A stretch of DNA of 64,000 nucleotides from Eledone cirrhosa (taxonomy: Eukaryota). Below are positions 7,398 through 51,765 of the stretch, one piece after another; position 1 is the first letter of the stretch, and each line of letters begins with the position of its first letter. The position numbers and the translations under genes were made by a program. The notes under the pieces were generated by a model. It was not told where the DNA came from and did not search any database. It saw only the letters and a list, made by a program, of their open reading frames with translations. Location: contig OZ024740.1 in the NCBI GenBank assembly GCA_964016885.1, positions 86,304,001-86,368,000 of the forward strand. Direction: 5' to 3'.

Positions 7398-7643
7398 ATA
7401 CATATTTATATAAAGATATATCCATATTTATTTATATATATATATAAGTATGTACACGTACATACATATATGTATACGGACGTACAGTAGTATGTATATA
7501 TATATACATACATGCACACATATATACGTATGGATTCACCGAACATTTATTATAATGCTCGGTGTGTTTGTAAACAAACATCCCGTATTAAGCCGTAGTG
7601 TCTAGCAACCATCGTTGCTCGTTTGTTCAACACTGACAAAGGA

Positions 7644-7686
7644 ATGCTGTACTAGTTTCAAGCTTATTAGCTATCGTCAGCAACGT
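7644..7686 (-). ncRNA. Minimal type I hammerhead ribozyme (family A)
   Basis: Minus strand: acgttg-CTGACGA-t agct aata agct t-GAAA-ctag-TA-cagcat. One stem I mismatch in this copy. Confidence 0.8.
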
Positions 7687-8055
7687 ATACCTTCCTGCCA
7701 GATTGTTGAACGTATATACTTACCTTATGCATATTAATGGCTGAGTAGCCCAATTTGGATATCGAGTGTGTTAATCGGCCGGGTGCATCGAAAACGATAA
7801 ACGCAAAAAATGAAAGAAAATTTCATTTCCCACTCTTAGTACAGCTGTTACTCAAATATAAGTATGTACACGTACATACATATATGTATATAGACGCACA
7901 GTATTATGTATATATATATACATACATGCACACATATATATATGTACGTATGGATTCACCGAACATTTATTATAATGCTCGGTAAACAAACATCCCGTAT
8001 TAAGCCGTAGTGTCTAGCAACCATCGTTGCTCGTTTGTTCAACACTGACAAAGGA

Positions 8056-8098
8056 ACGCTGTACTAGTTTCAAGCTTATTAGCTATCGTCAGCAACGT
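8056..8098 (-). ncRNA. Minimal type I hammerhead ribozyme (family A)
   Basis: Minus strand: acgttg-CTGACGA-t agct aata agct t-GAAA-ctag-TA-cagcgt. 6-bp stem I, palindromic stem III (CTAG), GUA cleavage triplet. Confidence 0.88.
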
Positions 8099-8161
8099 AT
8101 ACCTTCCTGCCAGATTGTTGAACGTATATACTTACCTTATGCATATTAATGGCTGAGTAGC

Positions 8162-8249
<88 letters not shown>

Positions 8250-8299
8250 AGTATGTATATATACGTACATACATATATGTATACAGACGTACAGTAGCA

Positions 8300-8335
<36 letters not shown>

Positions 8336-8374
8336 TGCTAAACACACATGCTCTATGGTGCAACACAAAAAAAT

Positions 8375-8443
<69 letters not shown>

Positions 8444-8590
8444 GTGAATATATATATGTGTATATATATATAGTGAATATCATTTCACACCTTTTATTGT
8501 TAAGATTTTTGATGTTCTATTAAGAGAACCGATTTTACTGAAAAAATCGAATAATGTACACCATTTAACCAGGGGGAAAAAAATACTGGT

Positions 8591-8709
<119 letters not shown>

Positions 8710-8759
8710 TACACACGCGTACATTAACATACAAAGAGACTTATACACACACACACACA

Positions 8760-8869
8760 CTTCTCCGTATAAGACAAAAGCTGAAAAATATCTTTTGACA
8801 TGCTAAAATACCCCCCATTGCTTTCAGACACATTCTTACTGACCATCCCTGCTACCACGAATTACTCTG

Positions 8870-8959
<90 letters not shown>

Positions 8960-8960
8960 G

Positions 8961-9019
<59 letters not shown>

Positions 9020-9088
9020 ATCTTAATAGCCATTTGACACACATCCCTGCTAACCATTATCACAACATCGAACACCTTACTACTACTA

Positions 9089-9130
<42 letters not shown>

Positions 9131-9495
9131 TTGTTGTGAAAGAGTCATTTCTCAATCTTGGCGCAAAACCAATATTTTATTCACATGACCTCTACCGACC
9201 AATCAAAATTGTTTTGACCACAAGAATTTTTGCAACACCAAAGTAACGCTGGAGCCACTTTTTTAACATAAAAACAGGTAGAATTCCCAAAACTAATCAG
9301 ATCAGAGCAAACAGCACGGACACTCTATCTCAAAATTATTTTTGAAAAGCATTTAGAAATGCGCAACCGGTAAAAACTTAAAAACTTAAAACCACAACTG
9401 AATACTAACCCATACAATCACTAATACTCTTTTATTCCTAATTAAACCATTTTTCAACTGTGAACAATTTGTCAGCATTTTCTATTCCGTTTACC
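8760..9495 (+). mobile_element. 3'-end/pseudo-LTR relic of a PLE related to the 24-29 kb element, with a damaged HHR at 9339-9375
   Basis: GAGCCACTTTTTTAACATAAAAACAGG (about 9252) matches the pLTR sequence GAGCCACTTTTTCCATATAAAACAAG (about 29542). HHR-like ttt-TTGAAAA-gcatt taga aatgc-GCAA-ccgg-TA-aaa has the same U3/A8 core and CCGG stem III. Confidence 0.65.
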
Positions 9496-9679
9496 AATAT
9501 ATATATATATATATATGAGATTATATATGTATGTGTGTGTGTATGTGTATATATGTATATATATGTGTGAATGTATGTGTTTGTGTGTGTGTGTGTATGT
9601 ATGTGTATGTATGTGTGTGCATATGTATGTATGTGTATGTATAGTATAGTTTACACGAGAGAGACATACGTACATGTAG

Positions 9680-10476: not shown

Positions 10477-10532
10477 CCTTCTATAAAATATATATATATA
10501 TAAACGGAAAAAATGAAACGATATTTCATACT

Positions 10533-10639
<107 letters not shown>

Positions 10640-10848
10640 GGGGAGAGAGAGATTGATGATGTCTTCACAGACACATGTATAAACAAACATATAAGTACGT
10701 GGTTTGTATAAGTGCTTGTGATTGTATTGTTTATGTATATATATATATATATATATATAATGTAGGACGTGAGTTTTATTGTAGTACAATAAAGCAATGC
10801 AGATATCGGATAAGAAGCACTCTACAGTTTGTAGGACTGGAGTATACA

Positions 10849-11180
10849 TAATATAAGATCAAAAGATGGTTAAAGGAGTTCCATGTATTTTATTATGCGC
10901 ATTTCAAAAACAAACATCATCATGCAATAATATTTGTGTTTTCATCAGATAAAACAGGAGGACATGATATGAAGGCTAAAAAACACTTGTGGATAGTGCA
11001 GTTTTAAATCAACATATCATATGTTGATTTAAAACTGCACTATCCACAAGTGTTTTTTAGCCTTCATATCATGTTCTCCTGTTTTATCTGATGAAAACAC
11101 AAATATTATTGCATGATGATGTTTGTTTTTGAAATGCGCATAATAAAATACATGGAACTCCTTTAACCATCTTTTGATCT

Positions 11181-11187
<7 letters not shown>
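10849..11187. repeat. Near-perfect palindrome, about 169-bp arms with a 1-nt loop at 11018
   Basis: ...AAATCAACATAT-C-ATATGTTGATTT... The arms are reverse complements with one visible mismatch. Each arm carries an HHR. Confidence 0.95.
11082..11148 (+). ncRNA. Minimal type I hammerhead ribozyme (family C); mirror copy at 10888-10954 on minus
   Basis: ttttat-CTGATGA-aaaca...tgttt tt-GAAA-tgcgca-TA-ataaaa. Palindromic stem III (TGCGCA), AUA triplet. Confidence 0.82.
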
Positions 11188-11245
<58 letters not shown>

Positions 11246-11290
11246 TAAACAAATAATGAATAAACAATTTCTTATATTAAACAAAAAAAG

Positions 11291-14428: not shown

Positions 14429-17400
14429 GATAGCAACTAACAGTGCTGCGATCGAATGTGGCTTTTTAGCCCAGCCAATGATCTAAAATGTCTTGCACAG
14501 AGTCGGCAACCAAAACATTTACTGGGAATAGTCGGCTGTGGTTGGAGTTCGTGTACTTTTGCATGTCGCTTGAGTCCTCCTGCTGATTTACATTCTCTAC
14601 CACATGTTTGGCAAGCATGATGAGTAGCATCTCCAACAGCAGCCTGGTAGTCAACCACTGGTCTTACTTTATGACTGCGAAGATGACTTTCGAGTCCAGC
14701 TTTGCTTAGGCAGAGTCTCGCACAGACGCTGCATGTCAGAAACATAGGAGGACCCTCGCCGTCTGGAAGTGCAACAGCAATACCCTTCCTCACGTCCCGC
14801 TTTACTTTCTCGTGTGCGATTCGAGATGCCTCAAAGGCAACTTTTCCCTCATATACAGTCTTTCTCCATTTATTACGATCAGCAGCAATATTTTCCCATG
14901 TATCAGCAGAGATGTTAGCGTCTTTCAGAGAGGCCTTCAAGGAATCCTTATACCTCTTTTTTGGTTTATGTGGCGGTCGTTTTCCTTTAACCAACTCTCC
15001 ATAGAAGAGTTGTTTTGGTATTCTAGAATCCTTCATCCTGGCAAGGTGACCACTCCAACGGAGTCGCTGCTTAAGCACAAGAGCTTCTATACTGTCACAC
15101 ATAGAGCTTTCCAAAATCTCGACATCACTGATGTGGTCCCTCCAGTGAACGCCATGTATCCGTCTGAGACACATCTGATGGAAACGCTCCAATTGCTTAA
15201 GGTGGCGTCGATATGTGACCCAGGTCTCGCAGGCATAAAGAAGACAAGAGAGTACACATGCCCTGTACACCTTTACCTTTGTCCTCCTGCATATGTCTCG
15301 CCGACCCCAGAGTCGCCTTTCTAGCTTTCCGAAAGCATCACTTGCTTTCCTAATCCTAAGTGAGATTTCACTGTCAAGGTTGCCGTATCGATTGACAGTG
15401 CTTCCCAGGTAGACAAACTGATCAACCACTCCAAGTCGTTTGCCATACACATAGATGTTTGGTTCAGTGTACTGCCTACCAGGTGCAGGTTGGTACATGA
15501 CGACGGTTTTCTTGAGACTGACAGTCAAACCCAGGGCAGTGCAAGCGTCAGAAAATACATTCAAAATGTGCTGCATATCACTCTCTGTGTGCGCTACAAG
15601 ATCGCAATCATCTGCATACAAGAGGTCTCTTATGACTGATGTAAATACTTTTGTCTTCGCAGCAAAGCGCCTGATGTTAAATATGCTGCCTGAGGTTCGA
15701 TATCGGATGTAAACACCATGCTCGCAATTCCTGAATGCAATACAGAAAACCATTGCAAAGTATATGGCAAACAGGGTCGGTGCTGGAATATCCCCCTGTT
15801 TCACTCCATTTTTTACTGAGATAGGCTCCGACATGTTACCTCCGACATTAACCCAAGCCTTCATGTCGTCATGGAAAGACCTAACTAAAGCAAGGAACTT
15901 ATCAGGGCAACCAAGTTTCTGGAGAACCTTCCATAATGCATCTCTGTTGACAGTATCGAAAGCCTTTGTCAGATCGACAAAAACCTGATACAGATCCAAG
16001 CCCTGTTCAATGCACTTCTCCTGGAGCTGTCTAGCTGAGAAGATCATATCAGTAGTGCCGCGTCCAACACGAAAACCAGATTGGCTTTCAGGAAGGACAC
16101 AATCTGCAATGTGTGTCAGCAGACGGTCCAGAAGCACCCTACATAAAACTTTCCCCACGACAGAAAGCAATGATATACCTCTGTAGTTCCCACAATCATT
16201 CCTGTTACCCTTTCCCTTGTACAAGACCACCATTACTGCATCTCTCCAGTCCTCACGCACGGATTCATTAGCCCATATCCTTCCAAACAGAGAGTGAAGA
16301 TGTTGCAGGAGTCTCTCACCACCATATTGTAGGAGCTCAGCATGTATGCCATCCATACCTGGAGATCTTCCACTGTTCAGCTTCGAAATAGCCACTGCAA
16401 CCTCCACAAGTGTCGGAGGTTCTGCGAGAGCTACTTTCACAGGACTTTCCGGAATGAGATTGAGGAAATCTTCACTGACGACAGACGGCTGATTCAAAAG
16501 ATCATCAAAGTGCTCTCGCCACCTTCGTAGAATTCCCTGTGAGTCACGAAGAAGTTCTTTGCCATCCTTGCTGCGAATCGGTGTCACCAGAGAAGAAGAC
16601 GGTCCATAAACCTCACGCAAGAGACTGTACAACAGCTTTGTGTTATTGCAATCAGACGCAGTTTGTATCTCACCAGCCTTCTCACTCCACCACTGATCCT
16701 TCATCTGAGAAAGACTCCGCCTAACACGTGATTTTACATCCCTGAGCTCCTCATGCAACGTATTCCTCTCCTGTGGTTTTGCCGTCAAGTAGCGTGACAG
16801 AGCGCGCCTCTTATCAGCCAACAAGTCATCTATATGCACATCTTTCTCATTAAACCAGTCCTGATGTTTTCTCTGCACCAATCCCAGAACACGTCTGCCT
16901 ACATCATAAACCGACTTTTTAAGGGTCGGCCAATCCTCACCAAGATCTGCAGCCTGCATCTCTTCTTCCAATGTCCTCTTCACATTTTTATCCTTAAGAC
17001 GAGCAGCATTCAATCTTTTGGGCAGGGTAACACCAGGAGCCCGGATTTTACGTTTGGTGATTAGATTCACTTTTGCGCGTACCAGGCGGTGGTCCGTCCA
17101 GCACTCAGCTCCACGAAGAACACGAACACACCGCACATCCTGTCTGTCACGCATCCTGACTAGGACGTAGTCCAAAAGATGCCATTCCTTAGATGCAGGA
17201 TGCATCCATGTGGTCTTGAATTTGTTCTTTTGTTGGAACATGGTGTTGGTAACACACAGATCCAGCTCCTCACACATCTGCAGCAAGAGCATACCATTGC
17301 TGTTACACTTTCCCACCCCATGCCTTCCGATTACATTCCATGTGTTAAAATCCCTACCCACTCTAGCATTAAAGTCACCAAGCACGATGACTTTGTCTGC

Positions 17401-17990
17401 CTGAGGGATATTTCTTAAAACACCTTTCAAGGCATGGTAAAAGGACATTTTTTCTTCATCGACAGAATTCATAGTTGGAGCATACACACTCACCAGGGTA
17501 GCATATCTTCCCTTGTCCAGCGGAACTCTCATGGACATAAGACGCTCACTAATCCCCACTGGGAATTCTTCTAATTTATTCACCAGTACAGTCTTAACAG
17601 CAAATCCTACCCCAGCCTCTCTTCTGGTTCCTTCATCTCTTCCTTTCCAGAAGAATGTATATTCTCCACAAAATTCCGTAAGATGACCATCCCCAGCTAA
17701 CCTCGTCTCAGACAAAGCCACGATGTCAAGATCGTAACGTCGAAGCTCCTTCGCAACAAGAGCGGTCCTTCGTTCAGGACGCTCCAAAGAATCCCCGTCA
17801 AGCAGCGTCCGTACGTTCCAGCAGCCAAGACTAAATGCCCTGTTTGGCTCTATTACAATGGCACGATGACGGGCGGGCCCAGGTTGTGATAACTTGGGGC
17901 CCCTGCCCTTATTGCCAATGATCTTTTTTGTTCCAGAACCCAAATTGGCAATTATCTCGTTTACATTGTTCTGGAACATCATTGAATTGG

Positions 17991-18021
<31 letters not shown>

Positions 18022-18828
18022 TAATAATAGTAATAATAATAATAATAATAATAATGATACTACACTATTAATAATTATTAATGCACTCGTGCAATGCCTG
18101 TGCGTGACGAATATTTTTAAAGTGAGGAAAGACTGTGCACTGAACCAATCCCACTCTCTGAGCGACAGTAGCTATAACCCGAAAAGAAGAAAAGATCAAC
18201 ATCATCGGTAACTACTGAGCCGCAGGTTTTATATCGGAGTTAACCCAGTTTCCTGAGATGCCTTCTCCTAGAAGAATACCCTGACATGGGCTGGGGGTTC
18301 TTCACTCCCAGTGGTTTAACTGCGCGATCGGGCATCCAGCCCGATTATTTCTATGTCCCCGCGCAAAAAAAAAAAAAAAAAAAAAAAAAAATTACTTATT
18401 GACACTTATACGTACGACATACACACACACGCATACATATGCGTGCACACAGCAACACTCACACACACAACAAACACACACACACGCTACTCTACTCACT
18501 TACACGCACACACACACATATATATATATATATTACCGTCATTACTGATACAAGATTACCAGATTATGTCAACTGTTGACTTTCAAGAGTTTGTATAGTT
18601 GAAGCCGATCGTATTACAGTCCAGTATTACTATAATTGCTTTACAGCATAGAGTTATGGCTCTCCACGGAGTCAACAAAAGAGAGTACCAGTGATGCGCT
18701 GGCCAGTCGCTGGATCCGTGCCAAAAGCAGAAAAATTATTATTAAAGTTGTTCTTAAGGTCGCTGGTGATGGTGATGGCGACGGCGGTGGCGGTGGTGGT
18801 GGTGGTGGCAGTTGATGTTGTTGTTCTG

Positions 18829-19146: not shown

Positions 19147-19454
19147 CATATACATATATATATATATATAAATGCAAGTATGTATGTATACGTACATACA
19201 TATATGTATACAGACGTACAGTAGCATGTATATATATATATACATGTATATATACATTTTGTTCAACACTGATATATGTATATATATATATACACGTATA
19301 TATATATATACATATATCAGTGTTGAACAAAAAGGTGACGTGGTTGCCTAAACGCTGTACGGTGTAAATCAGGCTGTTCGTTTGTTTACAAACGAACAAA
19401 GCAAACATTATAATAAATGTTCGGTAAACTGATACGTGCATATATATGTGTGCC

Positions 19455-19528
<74 letters not shown>

Positions 19529-19673
19529 GGCACACATATATATGCACGTATCAGTTTACCGAACATTTATTATAATGTTCGCTTTGTTCGTTTGTAAACA
19601 AACGAACAGCCTGATTTACGCCGTACAGCGTTTAGCCAACCACGTCACCTTTTTGTTCAACACAGACACAGGA

Positions 19674-19716
19674 ACGATGTACTAGTTTCAAGCTTGTTAG
19701 CTATCGTCAGCACCGT
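19674..19716 (-). ncRNA. Minimal type I hammerhead ribozyme (family A)
   Basis: acggtg-CTGACGA-t agct aaca agct t-GAAA-ctag-TA-catcgt on the minus strand. Confidence 0.88.
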
Positions 19717-20109
19717 ATACCTTTCTGCCAGATGGTTGAACGTCCGAAAGTATATACTTTCCTTATGAAAATTAACGGCTGAGCAAAGCGAACATTATAA
19801 TAAATGTTCGGTAAACTGATACGTGCATATATATATGTGTGCCTGTATGTATATATATATATATATATATATACATGCTACTGTACGTCTGTATACATAT
19901 ATGTATGTACGTATACATACATACTTGCATTTAAGTAAGTGCCGTACTAAAAGTGAGAAATTTCATTTCATTTCATTCTATTCCATTTATCGTTTTCGGT
20001 GCGCCTGGCCGACTGAACTCACTCGATATGCAAATTAGGCTGCTCAGCCGTTAATTTTCATAAGGAAAGTATATACTTTCGGACGTTCAACCATCTGGCA
20101 GAAAGGTAT

Positions 20110-20152
20110 ACGGTGCTGACGATAGCTAACAAGCTTGAAACTAGTACATCGT
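20110..20152 (+). ncRNA. Minimal type I hammerhead ribozyme (family A)
   Basis: acggtg-CTGACGA-t agct aaca agct t-GAAA-ctag-TA-catcgt on the plus strand. Confidence 0.88.
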
Positions 20153-20301
20153 TCCTGTGTCAGTGTTGAACAAAAAGGTGACGTGGTTGCCTAAACACTG
20201 TACGGCGTAAATCAGGCTGTTCGTTTGTTTACAAACGAACAAAGCGAACATTATAATAAATGTTCGGTAAACTGATACGTGCATATATATATGTGTGCCT
20301 G

Positions 20302-20360
<59 letters not shown>

Positions 20361-20466
20361 GCTACTGTACGTCTGTATACATATATGTATGTACGTATAC
20401 ATACATACTTGCATTTAAGTAAGTGCCGTACTAAGAGTGAGAAATGAAATTTCGTTTCATTCTATT

Positions 20467-20504
<38 letters not shown>

Positions 20505-23869: not shown

Positions 23870-24268
23870 ATTTATTAAAATAACAGATTAAGTTTAAGCA
23901 AAGAATCGCTGCTTTCACCCTTAACGGGATCTTCTGAAACTAACAAAGTCAATCTGTAAACGCAGAACTGGATATTTCAAAAAACGTTGCAACCGGAGGA
24001 AGACAGGAAGACGATACTTTGGTTCGTGGAAACGTTCGCTGGCTAAGAACGGGAAAAAACGAATATAATACGTCATTAATAGGAGCGCTGAAAAACAATT
24101 ACGCGCAAAGACAGAACCACGTTTATGGTATAAAAGAGGTCGTAGACTAATGTTCTCTTAGGTGGTGCATAGAGACGTTCTCTGGCAATGAACGAAAAAA
24201 ACGAAGATCCCGTTAAAGGGTGAAAGCAGCGATTCTTTGCTTAAACTTAATCTGTTATTTTAATAAAT
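23870..24268. mobile_element. Short element with about 65-bp terminal inverted arms carrying an HHR variant (family E)
   Basis: 23870-23935 is the reverse complement of 24203-24268. Minus strand 23891-23941 reads agttt-CAGAAGA-t ccc gttaa ggg t-GAAA-gca gcgattctt tgc-TT-aaact (U4 replaced by A). Confidence 0.65.
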
Positions 24269-24449
24269 AAATATATATATATATATATATATATTAGAAA
24301 GTGAGGTTTTTTTTACAAAATGAAAAATAACCGAGGTGTCCTACACGAGTGAAAGTATAAAGAAAAAGAGATGAAATCGAAAATGCAACTGGAGTCTTAT
24401 TTTTTATTTTTTTTATTTTTTTTTTTTAAATATATATATTTATTTGGTT

Positions 24450-24487
24450 CCTTTACCGGTTTCGCAGTTCTTCTGCTTTTCAAAAGG
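24450..24487 (-). ncRNA. Minimal HHR, U3-A8 core variant, in the 3' pLTR
   Basis: cctt-TTGAAAA-gcag aagaa ctgc-GAAA-ccgg-TA-aagg. Confidence 0.85.
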
Positions 24488-25002
24488 TGAGTTGAGATGG
24501 AGGGTCTGTGGTTTTTCTCACATCTAGTTGGTCTCTGAATGTTACTTGTTTTATATGGAAAAAGTAGCTCGAAATGCCAGGTTTTTCGAGAAGTAATTTG
24601 ATTGGTTTGTCAATAATTATAATAAATTTCGCGCCAGTTCGCGTTACAATAGTTCTTCAAATAAGAGAGAGGGGGTGGTGGTGGTTGTCACAGGTTGTTT
24701 TTTCATATATGAGTGTTTGAATTTCTTTTTACTTGAAAAAAGGAGGCTCACGAAGGCTTTTTTTTGGTTGGTTATAAATGAAATTTGGCTGTCACGTGAA
24801 CAAGTTTTCATTACATTTTTGCACCCTTATTTGGAAAACTATTCTGTAGTCTTTATAGTGAATGTTATGACAATGGAGAGATAGTGGTCAAGAGAAAAGG
24901 GATTGGGAGATTTGTTCTGGTTCAGTGAATATGGCCAGCTCGCCGGGGTGTCAGAGTTCAGATTTTCTATTGAAGTGAAGATATGTATGTTTATTTGTGT
25001 GC

Positions 25003-25074
<72 letters not shown>

Positions 25075-25487
25075 ATTGGAAGATGATTCTATTAGTAGAG
25101 ATGGGGGAGGGAGTTGTGTGTGTGTGTATATATATATGTGTGTAGGAAAGTGGTTCTATTAGTAGAAATGGGGAGGGAGTTGTAGGTGTGGGGGTTGTTA
25201 TGTGTGTGTATGGATGTTATGTGTGTGGGAGTATGGTTAGCATGTTAAGATGGAGAGAATATATATATATATATATTGTGTGTGTGTGTATGTGTGTGTG
25301 TAGGAAAGTGATTCCTTTAGTAGGAATATTTTTGAATGAACATATTTTCCTTACTTTTTCGTGTTTGCTGTTGTATTGCCAGTGCAAACGTATGTTAAGG
25401 TCTATTTAGTTCGGGTTTTTATTTTCTAAAGTAGAAGGTGTTATGTGTGTGTGTGTATGTCATATTGTGGTGTTGACATAATGTATA

Positions 25488-28400
25488 TTAAACCTTATTT
25501 AATGTTGGTCTATATTTTTGAATAAACATATTTTCCTTATTTATTCGCATTTGTTCTGTTGTATTGTTAGCGCAAAGGTAAAATGGGAAGACTTGGAATT
25601 TGGGTGTCTTATTACTTGCGCAAATGTCTAGATGTGCACTTAGTGGTATCTGTCTCGTGGTTGGATCTCGTAATTGTTGGCGATGAACTGTCATTCTGTT
25701 TCTGAGTGTGAGTTTAGTTTGTCCTATATAATCTTCATTGCATCCTTTACATTTAATGGCATAGTGATTTTTGGCAAGTGATTTAATTGCAAGTGATTTT
25801 TTACAGTAAAATTTTGTCCTGATTTAAATGTATACGTGTTGCCTTCAATGAGGTGAGTGCAGGTTCCACAATTAGAGCGACCACATTTTTTGATACTTGG
25901 TTGTGGGTTTGTGGTAGGTAATTTGGCATTGGTGAGTAATGTTTTCAGTGATTTTGGTTGTCTTTTGCTTTTGATTATTTTGTGTGTTTCAAGGGCTTTT
26001 TTCATTCTTGGGTTTTGTTTTAGTAGTGGGATGTTATTGTGAATAGTGTTGTAAGCTTCCGCATTTCTTGGGTTGTGTGTTGAGATATATGATAGAATAT
26101 TGGACGTACCTTGAATTTGTTTCTGTTTCCGTAATTCATCAATGCCTATTGCTTTAGCCCTTTCTATTCCATTATTTATTAGTAATAGTGGGTACTCTCT
26201 CTCGAGTAGAATTTCCTTTAATTCTTGAAGTCTTTTATTTCGCGTTTCATAATTGGAGACAATTGTGCAAATTCTTCTTGCTAGGTTAAAAGGAATGTTC
26301 GTCTTCGTGTGCTTTGGATGGTTGGAGGTGAATAGCAGATATTGTTTGGAATCTGTTGGTTTGTAGTGTATGTCAGTTTCGATATTTGTGTCTTTTGTTA
26401 TGATTAAGATGTCCAGAAATGGGAGTTGATCTTGGCTGTATTCCATTGTGAATTGGATGTGGTTATTGATGCCGTTTATTAAGTTTTTGAAATCCTTCAG
26501 TTGGTCGAGTGTGTGGGACCAAAGAATGAGACAATCATCCAAGTAGCGTTTCCAATTCTCTGATAAATATTTGTGGAAGTTCAATCCGTATTTTGATTTG
26601 GACTATTCATATATCTGGACTTCTAAGTATGCCATGACTAAGTTGGCATAAGTTGGAGCGGCTTTTGTACCCATCGCAGTCCCCGATATTTGCTTGTAAG
26701 TACTGCCATCGAAATCAAAAAAGTTGTTCTGTAAGATGAATTTTAATCTCTCGGTGATGAAGCTTTTTTCTATTCTGTCAGGTATCTCATTGGGATATTT
26801 CTCTAGCCAGAATCATATTGCTTCTAGTCCGTATTGTTGTGGGATCGTTGTGTAGAGATTCACTACATCGAAAGACACAATAATAGTGTCGTTGTTGACA
26901 TGTTTGGGGAGGTGGTTTAAGAGGTCCAGATCGTCTCTTACAAGGCTTGGTATGTGTTTGAAAATTGGTTTTAGTACTATGTCTATAAAGTTGCTCAGTC
27001 TGTGTGTTTCACATTGTGGGCCCGCTACAATTGGTCTTAATTGAAGGTCTGTGGGGGTATTGTGTGTTCACGCAGGCTGAGGTGAATTGTTTACAGGCAT
27101 CGTTGATTATTTTACATTTGTGGATCTTCGGAAGTCCGTAAAGGTTGCTGGTTTTGTATTCAAAATTTGTTAAATAATCGCGTTCCTTTTTAGTTAGGTC
27201 TTCCTGGTATCGATAAATCAGTGTGTTTAATTTGGTCATTATTTTTGATTGCTGGTAGTTTTTTACTCTTTCATAGTAATTAGTATTTTGTAAGAGAAAG
27301 AACATAGAATTTTTATATTTTTCAGCCTCCATAATGACAACAGTACTTCCCTTGTCCGCTTCCTTAATTACAATGTCCGTATTGTTTTTTAGTTCATGGA
27401 TAATCTCCCATTCCCTTCGACTTGTGTTGGGTTTGGGTTTAGGTTGCGGTAGTTCATGGTATGGGAAGGTAGCTATGTGGTCACAAAATTTGTCAAGAAC
27501 TCTGTTTCTACCTTTTGTTGGGTTGTAGCTGCTTTTATTCCGTACAATTGATTCGTCGTTATTCTCCTTGTCAAAGAATTCCTCTGTGAGATGTAATTTT
27601 CTACAGAAGTGTGAGATATCGTCATTTATCTCGTTGGGGTTAGGGTATTGTGGTGTTGGTGTGAATTTAAGACCTTTGGAGAGAATTTTTACTTGTTGGG
27701 CTGAGAGGTTTGTATTTGAAATGTTAATTATTTTCGGTTTTTCAAAATCGGTTTGTGCCACCGGGTGTCGTGAGTCCTGTAGCCTTGGTCTAAAAAATGA
27801 TTTTTCTGGAATGTTTTTTCATTTGTATTATTATATCTAATGGTATTTCCTCTGTTGTTGTGTGGTCTTGTATAGGAGTTTCGGACGTATTGAGGTTCGG
27901 TTTGTTGATAGTCCGGGTTGTAGATTTGGTTCCTTTGTGTGGGTTGGGATCTACGGTTTTGGAACAGGCTCTGTGTGGGCAGGGGTCTACGGTTTTGGAA
28001 TAGGTTTTGTGTGGGTTGTGATCTGCGGATCAGGTCCTGCCTTGTGTTCGGGGATCTTTGGTTTTTGTTAGTAGGGTTATAGTTTTGTTTATGGTTTCTG
28101 GGATTATCGTTATAGTTTTGCTGGGGGTATGTTGGACGTTTTGTTACTTTTTTTGTTATTTGTTGTGCATGTGGTGTGTGCGTTTTAGTTTGTTTTAAAA
28201 ATGGGTTACCTGTATGTTGTTCATTTTTGAAGTCCATTTCGTAGTTGTTGAACCAGGTGGCGTTTTTTTCCCATCGCTGGGGGGATGTTAGTTCTTCATC
28301 CTCACAGTTTTCTGTCCAAAGTTTTAGTTTTTTTTTGTAGAGTAGGCCTTCAGAGTGCTTTGAGATTTCTGTGTCCATCTGTTGGTCGAGTGACTTGAAT

Positions 28401-28929
28401 TTTTCTTCGTTGGAGTTGGCTCTTAATCGCAACAGTTCTATTTCTGTTTTAAATTTTTCCAATGCCATCTTTTCCCTAAGTCTTTGTTGGTTTTCTGGTT
28501 CATTCGGGATGGGTTTTATTTTGAGTTTTTTGGGGAGGATGATTGGGGTAGAGTTTAACCACTTTTCATATATGTCTGCCTTGCCATTATTTTTTAGGAG
28601 ATTCCAAAGGGCGAATTTGCGGGCTGTGAGCTTTTGAGTCCATATGTTGATTAGGGTGTTTTTCACTGAGTGGACATCTCGTAGATTGGGTTCTAACGGT
28701 TGTTCAAGCTTTTGGAGCATTGCTGTTTCAATGGTTTCGATTAGCTTAGTTAATACTGGAGTAATATTCGTCTCTTGGGTATTTTCTGTTTCTTCGTGGG
28801 GTCCTTTTTATAGATGTGTATTTGGTCCACTTTGTTGGTCAAAATTGAGAGTTTAGAGGAAATCTCTTTGAGTTCATTTAAGATGTCCTGGTTCAGTGAG
28901 TTGTTGTTTTGTTGAGACTTTGGTGGCAT
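25488..28929 (-). pseudogene. PLE coding region: coiled-coil-like ORF1, RT, CxxxxCxxC linker and GIY-YIG endonuclease; disrupted
   Basis: LSKGLKFTPTP, LYGLPKIHK, LRPIVAG, SFDVVNLYT, GTAMGTKAAPTYANL, RYLDD, LPFLD, YKPTD, CGRSNCGTC, YAIKCKGCNEDYIGQT...RMTVH. Lesions: extra C at about 27055, in-frame TGA about 26814, TAG about 26604, frameshifts near 25780 and in the 5' part. First ATG at 28929. Confidence 0.92.
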
Positions 28930-29095
28930 TTTCGGTCTTCGTGTGGTGGGTATATATTAGAAAGTGAGGTTTTTTTTACAAAATGAAAAATAACCGAGGT
29001 ATCCTACACGAGTGAAAGTATAAAGAAAAAGAGATGAAATCGAAAATGCAACTGGAGTCTTATTTTTTTTTTTAAATATATATATTTATTTGGTT

Positions 29096-29133
29096 CCTTT
29101 ACCGGTTTCGCAGTTCTTCTGCTTTTCAAAAGG
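29096..29133 (-). ncRNA. Minimal HHR, U3-A8 core variant, in the 5' direct pLTR
   Basis: Identical to 24450-24487. Confidence 0.85.
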
Positions 29134-29624
29134 TGAGTTGAGATGGAGGGTCTGTGGTTTTTCTCACATCTGGTTGGTCTCTGAATGTTACTTGTTTTAT
29201 ATGGAAAAAGTGGCTCGAAATGCCAGGTTTTTCGAGAAGTAATTTGATTGTTTTGTCAATAATTATAATAAATTTCGCGCCAGTTCGCGTTACAATAGTT
29301 CTTCAAATAAGAGAGGGGGGGGGGGGGGGTTGTCACAGGTTGTTTTTTCCAACCAGAAAAAAGCCTTCGTGAGCCTCCTTTTTTCAAGTAAAAAGAAATT
29401 CAAACACTCATATATGAAAAAAACAACCTGTGACAACCCCCCCTCTCTTATTTGAAGAACTATTGTAACGCGAACTGGCGCGAAATTTATTATAATTATT
29501 GACAAACCAATCAAATTACTTCTCGAAAAACCTGGCATTTCGAGCCACTTTTTCCATATAAAACAAGTAACATTCAGAGACCAACCAGATGTGAGAAAAA
29601 CCACAGACCCTCCATCTCAACTCA

Positions 29625-29662
29625 CCTTTTGAAAAGCAGAAGAACTGCGAAACCGGTAAAGG
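29625..29662 (+). ncRNA. Minimal HHR, U3-A8 core variant, in the inverted pLTR
   Basis: cctt-TTGAAAA-gcagaagaactgc-GAAA-ccgg-TA-aagg on the plus strand. Confidence 0.85.
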
Positions 29663-29733
29663 AACCAAATAAATATATATATTTAAAAAAAAAATAAGAC
29701 TCCAGTTGCATTTTCGATTTCATCTCTTTTTCT

Positions 29734-29764
<31 letters not shown>

Positions 29765-31287: not shown

Positions 31288-31344
<57 letters not shown>

Positions 31345-31350
<6 letters not shown>

Positions 31351-31702
31351 CAAAGAAAGTGTGGTAAGATACCAGGTGGACCATAATTCGATACTTAAGG
31401 TAGTAGACTGGGTAGATCTAGCTGTCGAGGCGGTCGGGGCTCAGCCGTCGGGGTCCCGACTCTTTTCCTATATATGTATTTACATACATACATATATCTA
31501 TATATAGAAACATGTTCAAGACCCCGTTAGCTGAGCTCAAGCCGTTTCGACGGCTATTTCTGTAGTCCAGAAATAGCCGTCGAAACGGCTTGAGCTCTGC
31601 CGTCGGGGTCTTGAACATTTTCCTATTACCCACTCTACTACCCAAAGTCTTGAGTACTCTGGTGCGTTATGGTCCACCTGGTTCCTTAACACACTTCCTT
31701 CG

Positions 31703-31705
<3 letters not shown>
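31345..31705. mobile_element. Family F fold-back element (also at 42630-42850 and 51418-51610)
   Basis: Palindrome GACCCC...GACGGCTATTTCTG-tagtc-CAGAAATAGCCGTC-GAAA-cggc ttgagctct gccg-TC-ggggtc, with shared flank CCCACTCTACTACCC...GGTGCGTTATGGTCCA. Confidence 0.8.
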
Positions 31706-31780
<75 letters not shown>

Positions 31781-34003: not shown

Positions 34004-36262
34004 TAAAAGCGAGGATGTGTGTGTGTCTGTGTACAATTTTGGATACCTAATTACAATTACCAACCGAATTTGACCAAATTTTCTGTGCACATTGCACAGG
34101 TCACTAAGATGGTCACATCACAAAAAATGTTCAAATCGAGCCACGTTGAGCAATAAAAAAATCGATAGCAAAATTATCGGTAGCAAAATTGATGTAAGCG
34201 AGATAACCAATTTTATTGACAATCCTTATAAAGAGAGTGAGATATGGAGACCTTCGTTTTCAATTTTAAAACAACAATCATCGTCGGACGAAATTTCAGA
34301 AATATAAACATCAGATTCATTTGAATATAAATCACTAATATTATCGTTTGTTTCTTGTTTATTCTGAATGTCGTCGTGTGTAAAACCTTCAAAGTCGGTA
34401 TCGCTACTTTCATAAGCCATGTTGATACAAAAAAAAAATGTGTTGCACTTTCAAAGTTAAAAAAAAACACTTGTTGTTTTAACTTATTTCACTTTATTAA
34501 GTGTTAATTTTCTCGGGAAGGGCCTAATCTCGCAGCAGTCTCGAATTGACGAGATTTTGGTGATGGTTTGTTTATTTTTAGAACAATCCTTATGGGACTT
34601 TCTATTCAAACCATTGGGACCTACAACTTTTACATTTTTAAAGTAATTTCGTCCACATTTGAGGCAGGCATTATGTATGCTTCCAGCTGTATTCGTACAT
34701 ATCAAACTTTTTTGACAATGAAGGAACATACTGAACAGGATGTAGTTATTCAAAGGATTTTTTAAGTTTTGCCAGTATATTATTAATTTTACTGTATCGC
34801 TTCAATTCATACATTTTGACTTTACAATTTGTCACCAAATAAAAGAAAGTATGCTCATATTGGCTCTCGGTCGAAGAAAACAATGCGTGTAAATGACGCT
34901 CCACCGATAACCAAAAATAGACAATCACAAAATGCGGTGAGTACAGTTATTGCAGCATCTTTGTCCGCCGCTGAGCGTCGGTTAGTGCGGCGAACCAATA
35001 ATGCTAAAGCAACTGCTGCAGCACGAGCTGCAGAGACTACAGAGCAACGCCTTTCTATGGATGCTACAGATACTGCTGCAGCAAGATCTGCAGAGACAGT
35101 ACAAAAATATGAAACACGCCGTGCGCGTAATGCTTCAGCTAATGTTGCAGCAAGAGCAATTGAGACTGAGCAAGAACGTCAAAGTCGCCAATTGAGAAAT
35201 GCTTCAGCTACTGCTACGGCACGAGCTGTAGAGACTGTAACAAGTCGAGCTATTCGGCTGGAGGGTAACGCTCAACGTAAAGCTTTATCGCGGGGTATTT
35301 CAAAGGCATCACGCTCACGATGGTACCTTAAGACAGTTAAGAATGACCCTAATGTGAACTATCAAATCCATCCTCATATTCAAATATATGCCATGTCAAA
35401 TACTTGCCAACATTGTAAAGCTAAAAATTGGGCGGGAGAATCGGCTGGAATGTGCTGCTCCAATGGTAAGGTTAATTTGCCCTATCCGGATGTGGAAGAG
35501 GCGAGGATGTGATAATAACAAAAATTAGCCTGACTACAGCAGGCGTGGATACTCCCTTCTTTCGCCGAACCCAATTTCCCCTTCGTGTTGCCTTTGCGAT
35601 GTTCATAAGTCGCAAGGTCAAACTCTGTCCGTCGCTGGAATTCACTTGGATGAACCTTTCTTTTCGCACGGACAATTCTACGTTGCCTGCTCACGAGTTG
35701 GCAGTAGAGATAATCTCTTTGCGTTTGTTCCGAAAAGAAAAACAAAGAATATCGTCTATCCTGAAGTGCTTTAGTGTTAACAAAAACACTTATTACAGCT
35801 CTGCCTTGAATTCACCTTACTCATTACAAATCATACCAATGAATATGTCATGCAGGATATTTTGGATTATAAGTTCAAAATTTAACCATACACAGCAAAG
35901 GATGCTCTCAAAGAATAGATTTTCTGTTATTCTACTCTCATTGTTTTTTGTTTGTATACAACTCTGCTTTCATTACAACTTTTTGTACTTTAGCAAAACT
36001 GCCTGTTTTTTTACAGATTTGCAACGTTTATTGTCTTTAATCATTTAATCATTTGTATAACTACATCCTGTTGAGTGTTTTCCTTTATTATCAGCATAGT
36101 TTTATGTGTACAAAGATTGCACTAAATATTCGTTTGCATTATTTATTGAAGACTTCTGCTTATTTTGACAGGTTGGGGACAAATAATTTTCTTCTTTTAC
36201 TTCCTAGCTGTATATTCTTAGCATAATTTCAAACCCCGGGCAACGCCGGGTAAATCTGCTAG
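33995..36262 (+). mobile_element. Internally deleted Helitron
   Basis: 3' terminus CCCGG-GCAACG-CCGGG hairpin followed by CTAG (36259-36262) then T. 5' end TATAAATATAAAAGCGAGGATGTGTGTG merges into (TA)n. RepHel remnants lie inside. Confidence 0.9.
34829..35774 (+). pseudogene. Helitron RepHel remnant: N-terminal repeats and Zn-finger fused to the PIF1-helicase C-terminus
   Basis: ETxEQR-type repeats and CQHCKAKNWAGESAGMCCSNGKVNLP, then directly FRRTQFPLRVAFAM..KSQGQT...FSHGQFYVACSRVG...TKNIVYPEVL* across frames. Confidence 0.88.
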
Positions 36263-42591: not shown

Positions 42592-42629
42592 CGAGAACAA
42601 TTGTTTCACCTTAGCGGATCCTCAGCTCG
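42592..42629 (-). ncRNA. Minimal type I hammerhead ribozyme (family H)
   Basis: cgag-CTGAGGA-t cc gctaa gg t-GAAA-caattg-TT-ctcg. Confidence 0.78.
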
Positions 42630-42886: not shown

Positions 42887-43126
42887 ATATACATTCATAA
42901 ATATATATATATTTATGTATATATATATAAATATGTATACGTACATACATATATGTATACAGACGTACAGTAGTATGGATATATATATACATACATATAT
43001 ATATGTACGTATGGATTTGCCGAACATTTATTATAATGCTCGATGTGTTTGTAAACAATCGTCCCGAATTAAGCCGTACAGTGTTTAGCAACCATCGTTG
43101 CTCTTTTGTTCAACACTGACAAAGGA

Positions 43127-43169
43127 ACGATGTACTAGTTTCAAGCTTATTAGCTATCGTCAGCACCGT
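43127..43169 (-). ncRNA. Minimal type I hammerhead ribozyme (family A)
   Basis: acggtg-CTGACGA-t agct aata agct t-GAAA-ctag-TA-catcgt. Confidence 0.88.
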
Positions 43170-43561
43170 ATACCGTCCTGCCAGATGATTGAACGTCTAA
43201 AAGTATATACTTTCCTTATGCATATTAACGCCTGAGCAGCCTAATTTGCATATCGAGTGAGTTAATCGGCCGGGCGCACCGAAAACGATAAACGGAAAAA
43301 ATGAAACGAAATTTCATTTCTCACTCTTAGTACGGCTGTTACTTAAATATAAGTATGTATATGTATATACATATATGTATACAGACGTACAGTAGTATGT
43401 ATATATATATATATACATACATGCACACATATATATATATGTACGTATGGATTTAGCGAACATTTATTATAATACTCGGCGTGTTTGTAAACAAACAATC
43501 CGAATTAAGCCGTACAGTGGTTAGAACCATCGTTGCTCTATTGTTCAACACTGACAAAGGA

Positions 43562-43604
43562 ACGATGTACTAGTTTCAAGCTTATTAGCTATCGTCAGCA
43601 CCGT
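43562..43604 (-). ncRNA. Minimal type I hammerhead ribozyme (family A)
   Basis: Identical to 43127-43169. Confidence 0.88.
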
Positions 43605-44262
43605 ATACCTTCCTGCCAGATGATTGAACGTCTGAAAGTATATACTTTCCTTATGCTTATTAACGCCTGAGCAGCCTAATTTGCATATCGAGTGAGTTAA
43701 TCAGCCGGGCGCACCGAAAACTAAAAACGGAAAAAATGAAACGAAATTTCATTTCTCACTCTTAGTACGGCTGTTACTTAAATATAAGTATGTATACGTA
43801 CATACATATATGTTTACAGACGTACAGTAGTATGTATATATATATACATACATGCACGCATATATATATGTACGTATGGATTTACCGAACATTTATTATA
43901 ATGCTCGGTGTGTTTGTAAACAAACATTCGGTTCATCGTTTTTGTTTCATTTTTTTCCGTTTATGTATTAAACATATATATACAGATGTATATATAGATT
44001 GAAAAGAAGACATGTTTTATGATGTGGACGAAATCTGCGGTAATTAAAATATAATATAATTTAACAGTCTTTGGTCATTTTTTAAATGTAATATTTGCTC
44101 TATGAGTGTACTTAAACGTCTACAATAAAGATTTCATGCAAATAGAATTGTATGTAGCCTTTTGAGTAGTTTACTGTAATAAATTTCATATTTTGAGCTG
44201 TAATAACTATTTACTTAGCCTTATCTGTTCTCTTATTCGAAAACGTTTTATTGTAAACTATG

Positions 44263-50514: not shown

Positions 50515-50545
<31 letters not shown>

Positions 50546-50688
50546 TAATAAAAGGAATTCCAACTTTGTCTGATTTATTCGTTTTATTTACAATCCTTTA
50601 AAATTATAATGATATTATAATGAAACAGTATGGTAGAATATTAAATGTTAAGTGTTAATTGAACAAGTACTTTTATGCTTTCAATCTT

Positions 50689-50794: not shown

Positions 50795-50837
50795 GTCACT
50801 GATGAGGTCACAGAATGTGTGACGAAAGAACTTTGAC
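50795..50837 (+). ncRNA. Minimal type I hammerhead ribozyme (family I)
   Basis: gtca-CTGATGA-g gtcaca gaatg tgtgac-GAAA-gaac-TT-tgac. Stem III (GAAC) is one substitution from a GTAC palindrome. Confidence 0.7.
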
Positions 50838-51380: not shown

Positions 51381-51420
<40 letters not shown>

Positions 51421-51765
51421 AAAAAGTATGACCCCGACGGCAGAGCTCAAGCCGTTTCGACGGCTATTTCTGGACTGAAATAGCCGTCTAGTCCAGAAAT
51501 AGCCGTCAAAATGGCTTGAGCTCCGCCGTCGGGGTCATACTTTTTCCTATTTCCCACTCTACTACCCTAAGTATTGAATACTCTGGTGCGTTATAGTCCA
51601 TTTGGACCATATATATATTCGGGTTTGTAAGGTTCACCACTGGATAGAGCTGGTCAATTCTGTATCGTCAATCTTAATGTAATAATATGGAGAGTACTCA
51701 ACGTAAAGCAATTCAACTGTCTTGGTTTTTGTAGTTGGTGGTACTAGTACGGGGTTAAATATTAT

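Follow-up and report, generated by a model that had tools for sequence, protein, structure and literature searches.

Family A in the window

The window analysed here is a stretch of 64,000 nucleotides from Eledone cirrhosa (assembly GCA_964016885.1, contig OZ024740.1, positions 86,304,001 to 86,368,000). It carries three groups of copies of a short repeat, hereafter family A, together with pieces of several PLE families (Table 1). An earlier note on this DNA had counted six hammerhead ribozymes (HHRs) in the repeat, and we found the same number, all instances of a single type I HHR motif. The note had also described the three groups as head-to-tail arrays of 412–435-nt units. This is true of arrays A and C, which measure 412 and 435 nt, respectively, from cleavage site to cleavage site, but not of array B, whose two arms are inverted head-to-head and bear their HHRs on different strands. 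Nor does array A extend over 7433–8305: it comprises about 1.75 units at 7444–8165, and the piece lying beyond the (TA)n run, at 8248–8338, has letters of another subfamily. The junction of this piece with the adjoining Neptune-4 sequence (at about 8335) has one match genome-wide, which rules it out as an amplified composite. Release of unit-length RNAs by cleavage at successive HHRs, as proposed in the note, is impossible from array B because its HHRs lie on opposite strands; two HHRs on the same strand are present only in arrays A and C. The only open frames of at least 100 aa that overlap the arrays of the window are derived from microsatellites. A solitary 31-bp stub of the family-A tail, inverted and flanked by (TA)n runs, was also noticed at 10499–10529.

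Table 1. Family-A copies, hammerhead motifs and PLE-related pieces in the window
Positions	Strand	Feature	Remarks
7444–7857	-	Array A, full unit, subfamily A	3′ end at 7444 tailless, inside (TA)n run
7644–7686	-	HHR copy A1	CUGANGA box 7680; predicted cleavage after GUA at 7650; C-A mismatch in helix I
7858–8165	-	Array A, upstream unit, 5′-truncated	Stops at (TA)n run
8056–8098	-	HHR copy A2	Box 8092; predicted cleavage after 8062; U·G in helix I; 412-nt unit to A1
8248–8338	-	Family-A stub with other-subfamily letters	No HHR; head-to-head with 5′-truncated Neptune-like 3′ UTR
8339–9532	+	Neptune-4-like 3′ UTR and terminal repeat, 5′-truncated	HHR motif with GCAA for GAAA
19179–19527		Array B, left part	No HHR; minus-strand stub 19179–19242 and plus-strand partial unit 19317–19527
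19528–19785	-	Array B, inverted arm, 5′-truncated	One HHR
19674–19716	-	HHR, array B inverted arm	Box 19710; predicted cleavage after 19680
19794–20412	+	Array B, direct arm, partial unit and full unit	One HHR
20110–20152	+	HHR, array B direct arm	Box 20116; predicted cleavage after 20146
20413–20470	+	Array B, 3′ tail	Covers the initial ~60 nt of one more unit; (TA)n at end
24263–29757		Neptune-1-like PLE, near full-length	Broken ORF 25488–28807 (minus), GIY-YIG; direct and inverted terminal repeats; U3-A8-variant HHR motif
42927–43929	-	Array C, 2.3 head-to-tail 435-nt units	5′-truncated at 43929, tailless at 42927
43127–43169	-	HHR, array C first	Box 43163; predicted cleavage after 43133
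43562–43604	-	HHR, array C second	Box 43598; predicted cleavage after 43568; 435-nt unit
~43944–43964	+	Short inverted piece	Has the tail end of array C
50541–50688		Third Neptune-like family, 3′ end	

The hammerhead motif and its conservation

The two strands of helix I in the family-A HHR are ACG(G/U)UG and CA(U/G)CGU (6 bp). The first is followed by CUGAYGA, a U, the 4-bp helix II with its loop (AGCU-AA(U/C)A-AGCU), another U, GAAA, CUAG and UA. Helix II is closed by U·U instead of G-C, and a U·U at this place is reported for the axolotl HHR_Amex2 in the available part of PMC7229834. Helix III consists of the palindromic sequence ACUAGU; this gives no fold alone and pairs with a second copy at −6.8 kcal/mol. 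The motif has the dimer-type build that PMC4209133, in its accessible text, reports for HHRs of metazoans and PLEs. A search of the window against Rfam at gathering scores returned no hammerhead, nor did one of array C at E ≤ 10, so that our assignment rests on core boxes and helices read directly from the sequence. Rfam matches to microRNA hairpins on the microsatellite were dismissed as chance, and the other HHR-like matches returned by our scan of the window were assigned to other repeat families.

In constrained folding, the double hammerhead is more stable than two single ones by 4 kcal/mol in array C and 11 kcal/mol in array A, and it lies 13 (C) and 7 (A) kcal/mol above the free minimum, the range over all active folds being 7–17 kcal/mol. 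The predicted unit circles are highly self-paired (z −6.8 and −5.5), with none of 100 shuffles equally stable; linear pieces lacking the microsatellite give z values of −4.1 and −3.1. In an alignment of 31 copies, chosen mostly by position, helix I extends into three more stems, and 97.4% of the cells in the named helices are paired, compared with 30–46% when the helices are slid.

Stem I had been read as acgTtg/caGcgt throughout array A, which describes the copy with its box at 8092; the copy at 7680 reads cagcAt and has a C-A mismatch. The double change from U-G to G-U that distinguishes the arrays is real, but its value as a sign of covariation is small. Among 137 motifs, the pair concerned is G·U in 71, U·G in 56, U·U in five, A-U in three, and G·G and G·A in one each. 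When a tree of 91 units was built with the columns of the pair removed, the U·G units formed one supported clade of 30; five others lay in an unresolved group, which also includes the U·U units. To judge from this tree, U·G may have arisen once, as a single lineage event, and the swap is for this reason weak evidence of covariation. Two of 28 pairs are changed on both sides in the 31 copies, which is not above the shuffles (452 of 500 reach two). The tree and the shuffle control thus leave statistical covariation of the swap unsupported. The paired percentage and the covariation score exceed those of all shuffles, a result that relatedness alone could produce. A second two-sided change was seen in outer helix I (columns 21 and 75 of alignment A2), where A-U becomes U·G in one subfamily and A·G in another.

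Loop II, said earlier to vary freely, differs at one position and in two states in the 137 motifs (T in 80, C in 57), and reads aata in arrays A and C and aaca in array B. For the idea that the fold is under selection, the support is modest. No other 31-nt stretch of the family-A unit varies as little as the HHR, and none of the 12 catalytic columns has a variant common to at least five of 129 units, but the contrasts with the remainder of the unit are not significant. Variants shared between units occupy two of 31 columns in the HHR vs 55 of 299 (p = 0.13), and 15 singletons are found in the HHR where 21.6 are expected (p = 0.09). An apparent depletion of rare variants in the HHR (p = 2e-5) was given up: it came to p = 0.09 once the subfamilies had been split, columns next to indels dropped and base context matched. 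Selection on the HHR fold is plausible and, on these alignments, modestly shown; it would act on the templates being copied and not on every inserted copy.

Copies and insertion architecture in the genome

The exact 34-nt HHR pattern has 23,085 matches in the 3.0-Gb genome and its reversed control none, which is well above what chance would give. Against this genome-wide density of about eight matches per Mb, the window is locally rich in family A; two insertions were found in twenty arbitrary 10-kb stretches. The family comprises four subfamilies that are 75–95% alike, with units of about 410–490 nt (about 466–490 nt in one subfamily) and an internal TA/CA microsatellite. Its copies are dispersed over many contigs and their flanks are unrelated; loci L012, L013 and L020 share flanks, and L171 contains a local duplication. 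Two HHRs on the same strand, the prerequisite for unit release, are present in 14 of 42 insertions chosen by position.

We examined the architecture of 131 insertions, defined as chained BLAST hits, of which 89 come from similarity-ranked loci and the window and 42 from position-chosen loci. Overlapping loci were excluded, as were four duplicates of the window and two segmental ones; the set retains L171 as well as one insertion counted twice (L079 and L172). Seventy-six insertions are head-to-head, 51 are single-armed and four are more complex, three of these being doubled. Their outer 3′ ends occupy two fixed sites separated by 62 nt. Among the head-to-head insertions, the 62-nt tail delimited by these sites is carried by one end only in 57 cases, by both ends in two and by neither in 17. 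The end of the tail is directly followed by (AT)4 in 53 of 58 instances, against a background of 2.4%; as the ends lie within (TA)n, a target-site duplication, which in non-LTR retrozymes exceeds 4 bp when present, would be indistinguishable there. The 5′ ends are scattered along the unit, and in its unique region they do not accumulate at the predicted point of cleavage (5 of 113 fall in q212–220, with 0–8 per 9-nt bin). The notion that 5′ ends are fossils of HHR cleavage was rejected as a general pattern, although L116 begins no more than 2 nt from the site. What lies upstream of a unit is another unit, up to seven or eight per arm, and never a unique element body.

A tail, an inverted 5′-truncated arm and partial tandems are given as hallmarks of PLE insertions in the available portions of PMC8557442 and PMC3846280; according to those of PMC11167929, the PLE tail corresponds to the stretch separating two internal start sites of the RT, and cutting takes place in AT-rich DNA. 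This signature, which is absent from the earlier note, is the best clue to the mobility of family A.

The same genome contains at least four PLE families encoding RT and GIY-YIG domains, two of which have many open 775-aa frames. Neptune-1 and -2 were named from their cysteine linker motif, and Neptune-3 and -4 from their likeness to Neptune-1, not from an RT tree. Neptune-1 is very young and abundant, and numerous copies keep the 775-aa frame open at 97–99% identity. The terminal repeats of all four families bear HHR motifs, three with a U3-A8 core variant, and the build of these motifs matches that of family A: GAAA (GCAA in one), a 4-nt palindrome and UH. Two of the families also have U's of the family-A type flanking the base of helix II.

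Mobilisation and template of family A

We consider it likely that family A is a non-coding HHR repeat mobilised in trans by the RT-endonuclease of a PLE, in other words a non-LTR retrozyme or non-autonomous PLE. The earlier classification as a non-LTR retrozyme-like repeat with one type I HHR per unit was right, for a class that was already known. In the scenario that we favour, tandem family-A copies would be transcribed and the PLE protein would nick (TA)n DNA. Synthesis of cDNA could start at either of two internal sites separated by 62 nt, and this would account for the one-sided tail; one to about eight units would be copied before synthesis stops, and a second, inverted arm would complete the insertion. 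Two successive HHRs are predicted to pair via their ACUAGU palindromes and to cut after GUA, and the released unit RNAs to be circularised by a host ligase. We give this second part of the scenario (HHR pairing, cleavage, circularisation by ligase and use of the circle as template) an even chance.

Two alternatives compete with this explanation. Family A could consist of the 5′-truncated pLTR ends of an autonomous PLE whose full-length copies are rare and unsampled. Its architecture equals that of true PLEs, and about 130 insertions of many thousands were read; moreover, most PLE copies are 5′-truncated and most min-HHR matches lie outside full elements, as stated in the accessible part of PMC4209133. 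We nevertheless regard this reading as improbable, since the sequence upstream of a unit consists of further units in a row. In addition, none of 74 PLE-ORF loci (30 Neptune-1, 14 Neptune-2 and 30 GIY-YIG) ends in family A as a same-strand terminal repeat, and a tblastn search with one Neptune-1 protein revealed no PLE ORF contiguous with a family-A arm in the sampled loci. Six loci considered as ORF-linked copies (L018, L042, L074, L175, L186 and L230) turned out to be nested, opposite-strand or distant neighbours. Among the 5′ flanks of the 51 single-arm insertions, no head-to-head join with a PLE family recurs. Less probable still is an ordinary minisatellite that spread through DNA-level duplication and unequal exchange and matches an HHR incidentally. 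The internal TA/CA microsatellite, the local duplication in L171 and the shared flanks mentioned above would suit such an origin, but the scatter of copies over many contigs, between flanks that are unrelated, the fixed 3′ ends, the head-to-head arms and the retention of the HHR helices across subfamilies 75–90% alike would not. The fixed one-sided tail refutes the minisatellite as the main route, although processes of this kind may still lengthen some arrays.

A third alternative is compatible with the PLE part of our preferred explanation and concerns the template, which could be an uncleaved linear multimer whose HHR would be a relic, either weak or dependent on protein. We see this as a serious possibility, somewhat short of an even one. 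Many arms cross at least one HHR site, so that the template was presumably uncut or religated there. In the available text of PMC11167929, HHR mutants inserted normally in vitro, which means that cleavage is not required for insertion, and the main substrate was unprocessed RNA, with no reads ending at the HHR site; eight of nine Xenopus dimers failed to cleave, according to the consulted portion of a recent preprint (bioRxiv 10.64898/2026.07.22.740005). The short helix III of family A, its U·U closing pair, the absence of clustered 5′ ends at the cleavage site and the p values of 0.09–0.13 for HHR conservation agree with this alternative. Invariant catalytic columns within the least variable stretch of the unit argue against a relic, as does the accumulation as circles of known retrozymes with such an HHR build (PMC7229834, as far as its text was available). 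A linear multimer is also less readily reconciled with insertions whose units can derive star-like from a single sequence. Thus, five units of L116 (866–3331) differ at 0–1 positions, nine units over both arms of L178 (3254–7395) show a mean of 1.4 differences and seven units of L188 have four private variants in common. Other arrays are internally diverged (mean of 12 differences in L179 and 15 in L187, up to 6.7% in L087), which would also be expected from age, and no difference between upstream and downstream units recurs across 90 adjacent pairs. Near-identical units fit rolling-circle copying of one circle, without being proof of it; source arrays that are young and homogeneous, or a local expansion at a later time, would explain them too.

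It is tempting to go one step further within the PLE-driven scenario and to propose that an insertion, both arms included, represents one to nine copies of one ribozyme-made circle, begun at two fixed starts 62 nt apart, with Neptune-1 as the partner. We put this forward tentatively and think it unlikely to be correct in every part. The tail of Neptune-1, at 62–64 nt, has about the length of the family-A tail, and the latter shows a weak likeness to the Neptune-1 3′ end (reached by 11 of 2000 shuffles, and the best of eight comparisons). This likeness is loose and out of register with Neptune-1's own tail, and Neptune-1 is for these reasons only a lead.

Family A closely resembles the metazoan non-LTR retrozymes of Cervera and de la Peña (2020; PMC7229834). 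As described in the available part of that paper, they have units of 350–390 nt in mussel and 330/350 nt in axolotl, and they share with family A a non-coding, tandem and AT-rich organization, one type I HHR per unit, a self-paired predicted circle, thousands of copies and coexistence with PLEs. The 412- and 435-nt units fall in the 150–450 retrozyme size range, which one subfamily exceeds. Family A differs from those descriptions in its unit length (412 to about 490 nt), in the microsatellite inside the unit, in being known here from DNA alone, and in that most insertions have one HHR per arm, head-to-head arms and a one-sided 62-nt tail. The latter features recall EN+ PLE insertions (PMC8557442, PMC3846280, PMC11167929 and PMC4209133, in the sections accessible), with which family A has in common partial tandems, an inverted 5′-truncated arm, a tail at one end, an AT-rich target and an HHR with palindromic helix III. 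Unlike the EN+ PLEs portrayed there, it lacks an ORF, its tail measures 62 nt instead of 30–40, and its arms contain up to seven or eight units. The non-autonomous Chlamys elements, such as MRC1, likewise have pLTRs and multicopy head-to-tail insertions; they have 3′ sequence in common with their autonomous family, and the clade is reported, in the available text of PMC8557442, to be without canonical HHRs. Li, Clavereau and Pollet (2026; bioRxiv 10.64898/2026.07.22.740005) likewise concluded that retrozymes are non-autonomous PLE derivatives. Their evidence, to go by the accessible portion of the preprint, is co-occurrence and pLTR homology in vertebrates, whereas for family A it is the architecture of insertions, no homologous parent pLTR having been found.

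Both the retrozyme class and its link to PLEs are thus already in print, and family A is a new high-copy member that overturns nothing known. No title or abstract pointed to it in a literature search with a scope short of most subscription papers, Repbase and supplements, and the same architecture may already have been published for other retrozymes outside that scope. What family A adds is architectural evidence from one genome, in the form of one-sided tails, head-to-head arms and (TA)n targets, for the insertion of retrozymes by PLE machinery. The presence of very young arrays of identical units beside PLE families with open frames makes this genome a convenient system for deciding between circle and multimer as template. 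If the reading that combines a circle with Neptune-1 were true, the two would form a retrozyme–PLE pair open to in vitro reconstitution.

Other elements are also present in the window. Frames at 34820–36048 resemble what we take to be a Helitron fragment; Pfam gave no hit for 34820–35512. An HHR motif at 50799 belongs to a different repeat family, which recurs in L055, L196 and L215. Another short repeat family, frequent in the sampled loci, has an HHR-like motif with palindromic helix III at 42625 (minus strand), and related pieces lie at 31291–31767 and 51385–51605. A large palindromic insertion at 10732–11257 contains mirror HHR-like motifs with a long helix II at 10948 (minus) and 11088 (plus). 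Finally, an intact-looking LINE occupies 14437–18171 on the minus strand, with an open 1244-aa frame that encodes an APE endonuclease, an RT and C-terminal C2H2 fingers.
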